From Felis catus (taxonomy: Eukaryota), in contig NC_058368.1 in the NCBI RefSeq assembly GCF_018350175.1, positions 19,532,001 through 19,596,000 of the forward strand: DNA of 64,000 nt, written 5' to 3'. Below are positions 5,055-49,812 of this stretch, in pieces. Within the stretch, counting starts at the first letter, position 1, and each line of letters opens with the position of its first letter. The notes beneath the pieces were generated by a model, which made no database searches, had not been told where the DNA came from, and was given only the letters and a program-made list of their open reading frames with translations. Both the position numbers and the translations under genes were made by a program.

Positions 5055-5133
<79 letters not shown>

Positions 5134-43350: not shown

Positions 43351-44440
43351 AGCTCAGCTCTTCCCAAGTGTGTGCAGCCGACACGGCTGGGTCGCGGGCA
43401 GTTCTCCAGCAACGCTCACTCCCAGGCACTGCTTCCTGTCCGCCCGACTCCGCCCAGGCCGATGGCTCCGGTGCAAATCCCTAAAAATTACACAGCCTCC
43501 CCAAAGAGGTGTAAAGTGTATGTTTTTGAAAATGAACTGCTTCCTATAAGGGAAGCCCCAGTACCTCTCTAAACGTGGCCTTCCTTGCTAACGATGGTCT
43601 TGTTGAGTACCCATGCCTCTTCCTGGTTAAAAATCATTTATCAGTTCAGCAAGCGCTTCCTAAGCACCACCTATGTGACAGGCCACAGAGCAGAGTGAAG
43701 AGGGCACCTGCCCTCCAGCAGCTCACTGCGCTGGGGGGAGGGTGGACCAGTGACCAGGGTTGAACTGAGGGCTCAGTTCTCCAACAGAAAAGTGCACAGG
43801 ACATGTGGGGGATGCCAGATCACACCCCCACCCCCGCCCTGGCAAGGGCTGGAGACCCCTGCCCAGGGGAGGAAATGCTTGAGCAGGGGTGGTCAGATGA
43901 AGAAAAGGGGGAGGGATGGAGAAAGGGTAGCCGACGGGTCCAGGACAGAGCAGGCAGCCTGAGCTCCCCAGCAGTGGGCTGGAGAGCTGCCAGGAGCTGA
44001 ACGGGGCAGAGTCCAGGCTGGGCCTGCTGGGCCACAAGGCAGGAGGCCAGAGACACGCAGAAACCAGTTATGGGGGGGGCCTCGGGAGGCAGACCGAGGA
44101 GTGCGGTTGTCATCCTAAGGGAAGTGGGAGCCACTGGAAGTCTTTAAGCAGGAGGGTAGCGTGATCGGCTGACCACTGCTTCGGGAAGACCACGGTGGGC
44201 ATAGGGGGAGGGGAGGCTGGGAGGTGGGCAGGGAGACCCGCAGGGGCCTAAGCCTCCGTGGAAGTGGGGGAGGGCACCAGGATGGGCACGCATGCCCTGG
44301 GATCTGCCGGGTTTGGTGACTGACGTCATCGGCTGGACCGGGGGAAGATGACTCACACATTTCTGCTACTGTTCACCGTCCTTTGCCAACAGCAGGTGTC
44401 GTGTGTTTGTTCCTTGACTTCTCTTTTCCTTTCCCTTTAG

Positions 44441-44695
<255 letters not shown>

Positions 44696-44744
44696 TGAGG
44701 GCCGTGGGACAGAGCTCCTGACTGACCGTGTGTTCCTCCTACAG

Positions 44745-44862
44745 AACGACTTGCTTGACGTGGTGGCGAGCATTCACCTCTCCAAGAGGACCGTCTGGAG
44801 AGTACGACTCAATCTGGTGCTGGCATTGATTTATAATCTGATCGGGATACCCATCGCGGCAG
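44745..44862 (+). CDS. ATP7B: ATP7B exon 19 (118 nt; YN motif)
   Basis: tacag|AACGAC...GCAG|gtaggg; [13 protein letters not shown]...[12 protein letters not shown]. Confidence 0.97.
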
Positions 44863-45304
44863 GTAGGGTGGCTCTCACCTGTTTGCTGACCTTTGACTCC
44901 AGCTTCTTTGACAGCAGGCTTCTGTCTGCCTGCTGGGTTCCTGCCAGCCTAGTGGGTAACCCGCTTCACTGGCTGCCAGGGCGTTTTAGAAAGAGTTTGG
45001 TTTCATTATGTTCTCTGCTTCATAAGTCTCTAAAGGTAAACGAAAGCTGCAGAGAGGGTCCCTGGGGTTCCCTGCTCCCTTGGAGCTCCTCCTGAAACCC
45101 ACGATGCCATTTGGGGACCGTCCCGGGAAGGCCAGGGTGGGTGGGTGAGCCCAGTCCCTTTGACAGCACCCCTACCCAGCTCCGAGACTGCCTGTTGGCA
45201 CATGGTCATGACGTGGCAGCAGGGGCTTCTGAGCCACCCCAAGGAAGAGAACTTCACAGTGGGCAGCCCAAAGCGGTGCCCCTCACCTCTGGGCTGTGGC
45301 GTGA

Positions 45305-45430
<126 letters not shown>

Positions 45431-45583
45431 TGAGTCCCTGGAGGCGGGGGCATGTGCCACGGCGGCACCCCCCAAGCCTTCTCCCTCCGCCCAGCCACCC
45501 CTTTCCCTCTGCCTCCTGGGCTGGATGGATGTGTGCCATGTGCAGGTTCCCAGCGCACCTGAGGCAAAGACAGGACGGTGGAG

Positions 45584-45584
<1 letters not shown>

Positions 45585-45626
<42 letters not shown>

Positions 45627-45637
45627 CGTGTGTGTGT
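45585..45637. repeat. (GT)n microsatellite in intron 20
   Basis: Direct reading. Confidence 0.93.
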
Positions 45638-46052
45638 AATGACTTAATCAGCACCACGAGTGAGTAATTCTCCACCTCGCAGCCATCATCATATGCTCGG
45701 CTGTTATAGTTAGTTGGCTCAGGAGTTGTTGACGTGGAAATGTCATGTAGACATGGGATCCTCGTGCATTATTATTTTTCCTTTTTTGAAAAAGATATTT
45801 GTTCATGCTTTCACTTAACAAAAGTTAATGGCAGCCTATTATGTGCCAGGCATTTAGATAGCAAGTTTCTGAATCAGGTGAACTTTACCTGAATCCTAGG
45901 AGCTCAATACCCTCCCCTTTAAAATCCATGAGGTTTTGATACTGTATGTTATTGAAAGACTTTGATGAGAGGTCTTTGCCAAGTTTCCAAAAAGAAAAAA
46001 AAAAAGCCTCTGTCCACAATGTCTCAAATGCTCTTGGATCCTTGCCTTGCAG

Positions 46053-46326
46053 CTATAAGAAGCCCGACCTGGAGAGGTATGAGGCCCAGGCCCAGGGCCG
46101 CATGAAGCCCCTGACTGCGTCCCAGGTCAGCGTGCACGTTGGCATGGATGACCGGCGACGGGACTCACCGAGGGCCACGCCCTGGGACCAGGTCAGCTAC
46201 ATCAGCCAGGTGTCTCTGTCCTCACTGAAGTCGGACAGGCTGTCTCGGCACAGTGCTGGGGCTGACGACAATGGGGACAAATGGTCTCTGCTCCTGAATG
46301 ACAGAGATGAGGAGCAGTGCATCTGA
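46053..46326 (+). CDS. ATP7B: ATP7B exon 21 coding part (274 nt incl. TGA)
   Basis: ttgcag|[17 protein letters not shown]...[16 protein letters not shown]. Confidence 0.97.
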
Positions 46327-47070
46327 AAGCTCCGGGCGGGGACGGTCCCGGGGCTCGGTCTCCTTGCTGAATAGTCGGGCCGGCTTTCCTGGTAGACGGG
46401 GCTCGGGCCGGTCAAGTGTGGCACCAGCAGCAAGACGGACGAGGCTCCTGTCCGGCCTCGGGGACTTCCGCTCCCTGGACATTCCTGGTCATCTCTCCTA
46501 GCACATGCCGCATCCAGACGTGGCCCCTGGGTCGGCCCACCCTGCCTAGATCCCACTAGCACAGGGACCAGGCATCCTGGCCAGACCCTGCTGTTGGCAC
46601 GAGCTTATCGGGAACGTGGCTGGACTCTCGCAGAGGAGGGGACAGCCAGCCCTCCACACAGGCCTCTGCTTTTGTGTTTGGGATGATTGCTTGTAAAAGG
46701 ACCAAAAACTTGGCTGGGCCTTTCCTTAAAACTCATGAAAAGCCGTGAGTTTTTACAAGACCCACATGCATCGAGTGTCTGAGACCGCAGTTTACCTCAA
46801 ATGCACCCCATTGACTTCTGCCGGCACGGTTTCTTCCTTTTCTGTTCTTCACACTGGGGATGTGCCGCCCCCTCCCCCCCCCCCCAAGCCCTGCCCGGTC
46901 TCTGAGGGCATGGCTGATGCCGTAGTGATCCCTGCTGCTGCTCCCGGGCACCTCTGCCAGACTCTGCTCCCTCACATGCTTGGCCGGAGAGCCTGCCATG
47001 CTTCTCTTCAGGTTGAGGAGAACTTTCTTTCTCGCTAGTGTGCCGCTTGGCCACAGAGTCCTGGCCACGT

Positions 47071-47173
47071 GCTCAGCGGCCACGGTGGCCTCCTCCGTGT
47101 CTGTGGTTCTCTCGTCGCTGCAGCTCAAGTGGTGAGTCCCGTGGGGCGGGAGCGTGCACCACAGGCGGCACCC
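47071..47173 (+). repeat. Local duplicate of exon 20 3' part plus intron 20 start (source 45369-45470)
   Basis: 66/70 identity over 47071-47140 vs 45369-45438, then weaker gapped similarity to 47173. Confidence 0.95.
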
Positions 47174-47769
47174 ACTGGGCTGTCTCCCCCACAGAATGGC
47201 CTGCTGTTGTGGATTGTCGCTGCCCCACTGGAGGGAGGGTCTCAGAGCCTGAGACCTGAGAAATTCTGCTCCCTGTGGGGTCCAGGCACTTGGGACCCTG
47301 GGAGGCCTGTGGTGCTTGAAATGGGTGTCCCACGGGGAGGTGTGTGCGCTCACAGGAACCTCCTTGCAGGCCTCCGGGAGCTTCAAATTACATGGTCTGC
47401 TGCGTGACCGTCACCTCGTGGCATTCATTCAGAACTCCTGCCAGGCGTGCCCCTGGTGGTGTGCAACTCCAAGCAAACAAGGATACCCAAATCAGAGGAA
47501 ATCAGTTATTCTCCATGAGCTCCTACTTCTGCACCCTGAGTCAGTGCCTTAGGAAAGGAGTCACCACACCTTCCCCAAGGGAAAGTCTTTCACACTTTGA
47601 GTGGCTCTTTGTGGTGGGGCAGGAATGGGGCCAGTTTTAGACTCTAAAGTCGGTGGTAGTTGACAGAACTACATGGGAGTAGACGAGTAGGATGAAATAA
47701 ATTTTAAGGTAGAGCCCTGATCGCATACACAGAATAATTTTATTTATTGAGTATCAGTTATTTTTCAGG

Positions 47770-47955
47770 GACAATATAAGCACTTTCTATAGGTTACCTC
47801 TAATCCTCCCAGCATACCAGCAAAGTAGATACTATTGTCCACATTTTATAGGCGGGGCAGTAGGCCCAGAGAGGCTACGTATCCTGTCCAGGATCACACA
47901 GCCAGCACACTTGCCAAAACGGGGATCCAAATCCATGTCTCTTGGCTCTGAAGTC
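47770..47955 (-). mobile_element. MIR remnant in the 3'UTR
   Basis: tactattgtccacattttatagg...aggcccagagagg...ccaggatcacacagc. Confidence 0.6.
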
Positions 47956-48496
47956 TTTTCTTTATTGCCGCTGCCACCCGAATATCAGTTTGGTAAGAAT
48001 AAATAGGAAAAGGGCACTTGGCTCTTAGAAGAACAAAGCTGCCAGGCAATACACTCATTGTTATCAACTGGGCGTGAAATTTGACCGTGGGGTCAACTTC
48101 CTCACCTTCTCCTTGGATGGTTTGTTTCCATTTTCGCATATGATTCCATTCTGTTGGGTCTTGCCCTCTAAAATGCAAGTGCAGGGTTCTGTAGTGCCTC
48201 TATCGTTTTCAGTCTTCCTCTCCTTCCAGGCCCCTTCCCGTTCTTCCCTTCCTTTATTCCTGGCTGTGCTTGGGAGTGTTTCTTGTTTTCTTAACTAGGT
48301 TAATCATTGTCTAAAGAATCTAACTGCATTGATTTTTTTCAAAGGCTTTTAGGACCATAAACATCATGTGTATATGGCCATGAAAATATTTATATAATTG
48401 CACAGAATGTAACCTTTAGATGTTCAAGGGGTAAGGATTTTTGTGTGCGTCGGATAAGAGCAGTCCCTATTCCAAAAACTTTCCATGCTGTATTAG

Positions 48497-48502
48497 AATA
48501 AA
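48497..48502 (+). terminator. Probable main polyadenylation signal AATAAA
   Basis: tattagAATAAAgttt with U/GU-rich sequence downstream; further AATAAA at 47696-47701 and 47998-48003. Confidence 0.75.
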
Positions 48503-49812
48503 GTTTATTTTTATTCATCTGAAAGTCTGCCTCTTGCTGGCTCCGCGTGTGTGAGAAGCATAATTGAGGCCAGTGTGGCTCCGTCTTCACTGAGAACTTC
48601 TGCAAGGTGCCGGCTTTGGTCTGCCTCATCAGGGCACAGAAGGGCAGGGTTTTAAACCGTGGAGGCCGTGGGGGGTGGCCAGACCCTCTGATGTGCCACC
48701 CCTGGCACCATGTGGGCCCGTCTCCTGGATACAGGGCCTGCCTTGGCGGTGTGTGGAGAGAACCCTGGGGGGCGACCCCATCCAGGTATCTGTCCCACCG
48801 GGCCAGACACGGGCCTCGATCTGCCCCATTAGATGCACCTCTCTCATCGAGAGGAATCGTCAACAAAATGCTGCGTCAGACACGCGTGTTTTAATCCGGA
48901 GGGATGTGTTTTGGGTCCCTTGGCCCTAAGGGAGCGGGGCAGGGGGAGTAGTCGAAGAGTCTGGGCCAAGGGGCTCTGCTGGGAAGGCTCTGTGGGCATC
49001 TTGGGGTGGCGAGCGGGCCGCAAGCGAGCTCCAGCTGAGGCCGAGGTGACAGAGTAATTTATCATCCAAACCAGGACACTTTTAAGAGTGAAAGGAGGCG
49101 CTATTAATACTTGGCCAGGCCAGCCGGCCTGCAGTGACACTAGCCAGCAAACTGGGACGCGTGGTCACCTTCCCAAAAAGGGAGATAGACCTTGTGAAGT
49201 CACTGACACAAACTGCATCACTTCAGAATGCGGCTCTCATTGTAGATTCTGTGGACATGTTGGTGACATATCCTTTATCCAATTTGAGATTTTTCCCTCT
49301 GTCATATCCTGAGACCAATGCTTCTCCATAGAATCACTGAGGTGGTCATCTTTGTGGCCCAGTATGACCACATCAAGAACCAGTCACAGATGTGTCACAC
49401 TTCCTGGTGCCCTACGGTTTCTCCAGCACACCATGTAGGACTTCAAGCCAGGCACCCTTGACTGTTTTTCTGGAAGCCCAGGTGTGGGGGTTTCGTTGTA
49501 TGCATGTCTCCTTGTGGGAAGAGAGGATTCCATTTCTTTAAAAAATAGATCTTTCTAAAATTTGAGATCTCCCTGATACGATTCCACACGCACCAGAATA
49601 AATCACAGCGTCTATCCATTTCTGATAAGTTTTCAGCCTTTAAGATCTCCATGAAGGCTTGTGAAGGACAGAATCTACAATGAGAGCTTATAGGGGTCAC
49701 CCTATGAGCAAATAATAATTGTAGTTTTCTTGGTAAAGATGGCACCGGGAAACTGATGTGTCAAGAGGTAGATACTGAAGTTGTTCTGCTAGTTTACTAA
49801 GAGACCAAGATT

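Follow-up and report, generated by a model that had tools for sequence, protein, structure and literature searches.

A copy of the ATP7B exon 20/intron 20 junction in the 3'UTR of the same gene in the cat: probably an old, lineage-specific insertion in neutral decay

How did a piece of an internal exon, joined to the start of the intron that follows it, come to lie in the 3'UTR of its own gene, and does it do anything there? The question is raised by ATP7B in the cat (Felis catus), in a stretch of 64,000 nucleotides (NCBI RefSeq assembly GCF_018350175.1, contig NC_058368.1, forward-strand positions 19,532,001 to 19,596,000) that we call the window and whose numbering is used throughout. Our analysis makes it probable that the block is a real, germline-fixed and lineage-specific insertion of ~118 bp, copied once from the same gene 1.7 kb upstream, with DNA as the likeliest template, and left to neutral decay since. 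The features involved are collected in Table 1.

Table 1 Features of the ATP7B 3' end and of the duplicated block (window positions)
Feature	Positions	Strand	Remarks
ATP7B exon 20 (source exon, 103 nt)	45327..45429	+	encodes residues aligned with 1342-1374 of human ATP7B
Source segment of the duplication	45369..45485	+	last 61 nt of exon 20, 41 nt of intron 20 (certain) and 15 nt (probable)
ATP7B exon 21, coding part	46053..46326	+	stop codon TGA 46324-46326
ATP7B presumed 3'UTR	46327..48520	+	AATAAA signals (+ strand) at 47696, 47998 and 48497
Spurious open frame, 217 codons	46733..47386	-	runs across the copy and both junctions; not a gene; cross-species probe
Copy, exonic part	47071..47131	+	61 nt, 4 transitions relative to source
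Copy, intronic core	47132..47173	+	opens with the copied donor GTGAGT, 47132-47137
Copy, probable last 15 nt	47174..47188	+	9/15 identical to source; not significant alone

The 3' end of ATP7B is carried on the plus strand of the window. The translation of 45329-45427, in exon 20, is identical to residues 1342-1374 of human ATP7B (PDB 7xuk_A) at 33 of 33 positions (E 7.5e-14), and that of 46054-46323, in exon 21, matches residues 1376-1465 of the same chain (E 3.4e-46); residue numbers given below are those of 7xuk_A. Exon 20 is intact and codes normally, with its acceptor AG read at 45325-45326 and its donor GT at 45430-45431. The copy starts at 47071, 745 nt past the stop codon, and given the positions of the three AATAAA signals (Table 1) it sits that far into terminal exon 21 whichever poly(A) signal is used. 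Of the words sampled from 46600-47700, public runs labelled as RNA contain 0.58-0.76, and four runs guessed to be RNA contain 0.99.

Several other features were observed around this gene end. Intron 20 holds a (GT)n microsatellite with a short GC-interrupted end (45583-45640), which matches other GT/CA runs of the window near 5101, 12340, 40452, 53650 and 55910. In the 3'UTR, a C-rich run (46866-46887, a long C stretch with one T break) lies ~185 nt 5' of the copy. The GC content climbs to 0.55-0.62 over 48500-49250, directly past the last plus-strand AATAAA, and several minus-strand AATAAA are found at 47739-48515; together, these could be due to a CpG-rich element or to a convergent neighbour that ends here. 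Over the whole window, AWTAAA occurs 155 times against ~52 expected from shuffles, an excess that probably comes from the A-rich tails of interspersed repeats.

The earlier note on this DNA had reported that 47071-47140 matches 45369-45438 at 66 of 70 bases, gap-free and with transitions only, and both repeat search and local alignment reproduced this. The four mismatches (source/copy) are A/G at 45376/47078, T/C at 45381/47083, C/T at 45384/47086 and A/G at 45421/47123. The further similarity that it described, about 33 bp deeper into intron 20, was also recovered: past the 70 bases, a gapped alignment with three single-base indels runs to 45470/47173 and ends in GGCGGCACCC. With blastn inside the window, 45369-45470 aligns to 47071-47173 at 88.35% identity over 103 columns (E 1.7e-31), and this is the sole non-self match of the 3'UTR (46327-48600), where no other templated piece was found. 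The repeat search divides the similarity into two stretches, 45369-45460 with 47071-47162 (88% over 92 nt) and 45461-45485 with 47164-47188 (76%), the second being a weak extension (19/25 identical, repeat family D2). According to where gaps are placed, the intronic core mismatches at 5-7 of its 41 aligned positions.

The donor segment lies 1702 bp away in direct orientation in the same gene. Its exonic stretch encodes residues 1355-1374 of ATP7B and the rest is the start of intron 20. The copy retains the donor AAGTG/GTGAGT, with GT at 47132-47133. It differs by ATG>ACG at the codon aligned with Met1359, which we take to be a copper-binding methionine, and by GCG>GTG at the codon of Ala1360. 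The retained donor and the two codon changes were all as previously described.

A 181-nt query found two places only in the 2.43-Gb genome, the copy and the source (blastn E 6.5e-28; such genome match counts are lower bounds for common words). With only two matching places, a transposable element or a dispersed repeat family was rejected. Outside the block, the surroundings of copy and source are alike only at the level of dinucleotide shuffles (1000 for each test): the score of the upstream flanks was reached by 203/1000 shuffles at 60 nt and 724/1000 at 200 nt, and that of the downstream flanks by 661/1000 and 272/1000, respectively. This level of similarity led us to reject a simple tandem or segmental duplication, as well as an older and larger duplication that only recently underwent conversion over this tract. 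Positions 47173-47188 are not followed by an A-run, and the block is not flanked by any repeat of at least 5 bp that could be a target-site duplication. Microhomology of at least 3 nt is not visible at 47070/47071 or at 47173-47188, after a long decay and with the empty site known only as protein.

Relatives of the locus were searched for with the minus-strand spurious frame that crosses the copy (Table 1), in metagenome- and run-derived protein collections where its counterparts have been called as 'proteins' by gene callers. The reading frame of these relatives changes from species to species (P0002, P0010), and no Pfam domain is recorded for any of them; presence, absence and donor changes are thus statements about translated spurious ORFs, not about DNA. 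A plus-strand frame (47039-47404) used as probe of the protein collections gave no match.

Two relatives carry the block. P0001, the close one (206 aa, 93% identical), contains the copy, both flanks and both copy-specific residue changes. P0002, the distant one (164 aa), is collinear with 47503-47021 while alternating between two minus frames, and has the copy between orthologous flanks; its score of 100 against the copy region was reached by 0 of 2000 shuffles. Across the left junction, the window, P0001 and P0002 share the same eight residues, AAEHVART. Two other records, P0004 (129 aa) and P0011, which come from different sources and are identical at 128 of 129 residues, lack the block and join the downstream flank directly to the upstream flank. 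In P0004, the downstream flank is 63% identical over 71 aa, down to 47177, and is followed by the upstream flank from 47064 downwards. The tail of this protein scores 47 against the upstream flank, a value reached by 2 of 2000 shuffles, and P0004 scores only 22 against the copy region, a level that 1979 of 2000 shuffles attain. To within some dozen bases, the empty site is clean. The suggestion that the block may be a lineage-specific insertion is therefore borne out, at the level of translated ORFs, by carriers and non-carriers sharing the same flanks.

The remaining matches are of less use at the junctions. P0010, which came from a profile search, and P0012 end just short of the junction and are silent on presence or absence. 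P0008 and P0009 span only 46570-46860, P0005-P0007 are weak matches to long proteins, and P0003 and P0013 are spurious frames over the source exon of another species. A degenerate exon-20 pattern retrieved one metagenome-contig record (L003) and none in genome contigs or viral contigs; a degenerate exon-21 pattern retrieved 0 records in genome contigs and 0 in viral contigs. L003 is a 1219-nt contig of mammalian host DNA with intron 19, exon 20 and the start of intron 20 of ATP7B. It is 74.7% identical to 45070-45448 and ends in intron 20, so that it serves as an outgroup for the exon only.

These relatives also bear on the length of the block. About 112-127 nt are missing from P0004, a gap that fits an end near 47188 better than one at 47173. 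From this gap size, and from the likeness to the intron 20 of another species (P0003), the copy probably extends to about 47188, for a total of ~118 bp.

What was the template? Spliced mRNA is excluded, as the earlier note had argued, because the block crosses the donor of exon 20 into intron 20; the sequence does not separate DNA from unspliced pre-mRNA. LINE-1 retrocopying and transposons are excluded by the lack of a poly(A) tail, the lack of a visible target-site duplication and the presence of just two genome copies. The block resembles processed pseudogenes and LINE-1 retrocopies (class 1) in that a gene fragment was copied to a second place, but it differs from them in sitting within its parent gene and in carrying intron sequence (42-57 nt of intron 20), with neither tail nor duplication, and that candidate was rejected.

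We favour DNA in cis as the template, with more confidence than for any other source though far from certainty, by a mechanism that we infer. The insertion probably entered the terminal exon, in the same orientation, in an ancestor shared with at least two other sequenced lineages. The copying may have occurred by a replication template switch back and forth, of the FoSTeS/MMBIR type, or alternatively by synthesis-dependent patching of a double-strand break from nearby sequence. A local DNA template is favoured because the donor is 1.7 kb away, whereas published insertions attributed to RNA templates have donors scattered over chromosomes (PMC5110952).

FoSTeS/MMBIR events and polymerase-theta templated insertions arise through replication template switching or break-repair synthesis. 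The ATP7B block is like them in its short, nearby template in cis, its intact donor, its lack of transposon features and the existence of a relative with a clean empty site. What characterizes a templated insertion in cis, a copy of an intact source and an orthologous empty site in a relative, is found here, the latter in translated ORFs. On the other hand, polymerase-theta snap-back insertions are typically shorter than ~118 bp and are copied from closer by than 1.7 kb. Unlike the cases known for these pathways, the copy is fixed, tens of millions of years old and not somatic, and any microhomology is invisible after decay.

The gene's own unspliced pre-mRNA is an unlikely template in comparison with DNA in cis, and the rest of the probability falls to other routes. 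Along such an RNA route, which we likewise hold to be rather improbable, a tethered unspliced pre-mRNA would have been reverse-transcribed as a patch for a break in the 3'UTR, as in RNA-templated repair or class 2 insertions. The block does span an exon-intron junction in sense orientation within one transcription unit; the orientation, however, is a 1-in-2 outcome, and there is no sequence mark of an RNA intermediate. The class 2 templated sequence insertion polymorphisms of Onozawa and Aplan offer a close comparison, and in a review of them an RNA intermediate is proposed, with donors that are distant and spread chromosome-wide (PMC5110952). As in the class 2 insertions described there, the ATP7B insert comes from a transcribed region, intron included, its donor is intact, and it shows no poly(A), no obvious target-site duplication and no cryptic poly(A) signal at its end (PMC5110952). 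Unlike the distant RNA template of that class, the ATP7B donor belongs to the same gene, at a distance of 1702 bp, and no RNA intermediate is needed; moreover, the insert is clade-fixed, whereas those of PMC5110952 are polymorphic. In the experiments reviewed there, donors of such insertions fell on 18 of 24 chromosomes without preference (PMC5110952), and a nearby donor fits DNA more simply. RNA-templated break repair in human cells is reported in PMC12065846, where whole-intron deletions are presented as its scars, left by spliced mRNA. The two situations have in common the transcript of the broken gene as proposed repair template, but the scars described there remove introns while the ATP7B case adds an unspliced junction at a second site (PMC12065846).

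When did the insertion occur? Over 62 comparable residues of the flanks, the distance is 0.21 between the window and P0002, 0.29 between the window and the empty lineage and 0.35 between P0002 and the empty lineage, where the empty lineage combines P0004 with P0010, which stands for a related, non-identical lineage. The longest branch is that of the empty lineage in 86% of bootstraps. Under a rough clock, the simplest history would place the empty lineage as outgroup, with a single insertion after it split off and before the lineage of P0002 did. The exon of L003 agrees with the copy at 45376 and 45421, the two synonymous differences; hence these two changes arose in the source, and the only changes on the copy branch in the 61 exonic bases are ATG>ACG and GCG>GTG. 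The intronic divergence between source and copy (K 0.13-0.19) is about half of that between the window and L003 in intron 19 (K 0.27-0.32). Pooled neutral branches give 4.9-6.3% change per branch (95% interval 2-12%). Mammalian substitution rates are taken as 1.0-2.2e-9 per site per year, and with these assumed rates the point estimates of the age are 22-63 million years, with outer bounds of 9-119. These rough clocks suggest an old insertion, of the order of tens of millions of years, and not a recent one.

Such wide age estimates, together with an outgroup position found in only 86% of bootstraps, leave some room for a block ancestral to a wider group, possibly all placental mammals, and later deleted in the lineage of P0004 and P0011. 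We consider this quite improbable, as a secondary deletion rarely achieves a site clean to about a dozen bases, and as the intronic divergence of the pair is only about half that of the intron compared with L003.

A two-step origin may also be envisaged, in which a 1702-bp tandem duplication of 45369-47070 was followed by a deletion that left the first ~118 bp of the second unit. A tandem duplication would produce just this left junction, with the copy of 45369 following 47070. However, two events are required, no remnant of the unit is left, the flanks are dissimilar, the 3'UTR has no other self-match, and the window, P0001 and P0002 all show the same short form. This origin is even a little more doubtful than a secondary loss.

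Does the block have a function? A preferential preservation of its exonic part by gene conversion or selection had been put forward as something to check. The exonic part has 4 differences in 61 positions and the intronic part 5-7 in 41, a contrast that is not significant (Fisher P 0.11-0.48), and a neutral model with unconstrained drift of the copy and only synonymous change in the source is not rejected (P 0.29-0.55). Conversion or selection is therefore not needed, the exon-intron difference being compatible with the neutral model, and this candidate was set aside. The Met codon was changed independently in two lineages, being ACG in the window and, most simply, GTG in P0002; in the minus frame, the change reads as Val in the window and Thr in P0002. 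GCG>GTG is common to the window, P0001 and P0002, and reflects either inheritance or parallel CpG change.

The copied donor is intact (GTGAGT) in the window and mutated in both carriers. In the translated ORF of P0001, a Thr>Ile change in the AGT triplet forces G>A at donor position +5; in that of P0002, a His>Leu change in the GTG triplet forces T>A at position +2, which removes the GT. The copy has no coding role, and it probably has no conserved regulatory role either. Its pattern of change fits the decay of a neutral relic.

5' splice sites in terminal exons can inhibit polyadenylation or trigger NMD. In the window itself, a predicted 5' splice site of full strength in the terminal exon could thus damp polyadenylation or create an NMD-sensitive intron. 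The copied donor lies 564 nt before the first AATAAA. Acceptor-like sites are present at 48230 and 48299, ahead of the last AATAAA, with 16-18 pyrimidines in the 20 nt before YAG and no upstream AG. One may therefore ask whether the copy has been kept for a function, as a U1 snRNP-binding site damping proximal polyadenylation or as the donor for a 3'UTR intron through which NMD would adjust the output of ATP7B. In the window, the donor and the 61 nt of exon sequence before it correspond to a working splice site, and the two acceptors are plausible partners for it. Against this stand the loss of the site in both relatives, which argues against a conserved role of the donor, the neutral-like decay, the presence of 0.99 of the unspliced 3'UTR words in guessed-RNA runs and the lack of any Rfam family at gathering score in 44000-49000. 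A copy kept for function is thus very improbable, and a conserved 3'UTR splice site or a functional alternative or poison exon was rejected on the mutated donors of P0001 and P0002.

A bolder combination can be formulated, in which the nascent tethered transcript was the template and the intact donor now lowers or re-routes the 3'-end formation of ATP7B mRNA in the lineage of the window. We regard it as a long shot. If true, it would provide a datable, germline-fixed natural case of RNA-templated break repair in cis in a mammal.

The block might finally be an error of assembly, as the earlier note had envisaged, but we give this next to no credence since nothing speaks for it beyond the general possibility, while the copies differ at 4 plus 5-7 positions and by 3 indels, runs from 10 studies carry nearly all the sampled words, and P0001 and P0002, independent records from other lineages, have the block with an identical left junction. 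The substitutions and indels between the copies mean that no collapsed or doubled assembly is involved. As for the runs, 15 of the 24 listed hold 0.99-1.00 of 106 sampled words of 46600-47700, this same-species support being a share of words, which cannot show junctions. The 15 runs bear two organism labels, and 7 of their rows (5 studies) carry no flag as a possible source of the assembly. That the block is real is most strongly supported by its presence in other lineages, as read from their translated frames.

Searches of the ATP7B literature (feline or 3'UTR; exon 20, untranslated region or duplication) found no description of the block. It is not mentioned in the available text of two cat case reports (PMC10328163, PMC6430902), nor in that of a paper on a human deletion (PMC5167361). 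The block seems to be a case, not described so far, of a familiar kind of event.

Long spurious open frames of the GC-rich ATP7B 3'UTR (P0001, P0002, P0004, P0010-P0012) sit as 'proteins' in public collections, in several mammalian lineages. Such spurious UTR frames are database noise, yet they can serve to probe non-coding orthologs across species.

The direct importance of the finding is modest. The block could mark a clade: it is a clean rare genomic change that arose once, from a known source, and whose site is empty in an outgroup. It also contains an internal clock, since a constrained source exon and a drifting copy form a pair that dates itself. For genotyping, the copy calls for caution, as the codons aligned with Met1359 and Ala1360 are precisely those at which it departs from exon 20. 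If copy and source were confused during capture, PCR or short-read mapping, false missense calls would result, and these would fall in a functionally critical helix of a gene that is screened in copper-storage disease.
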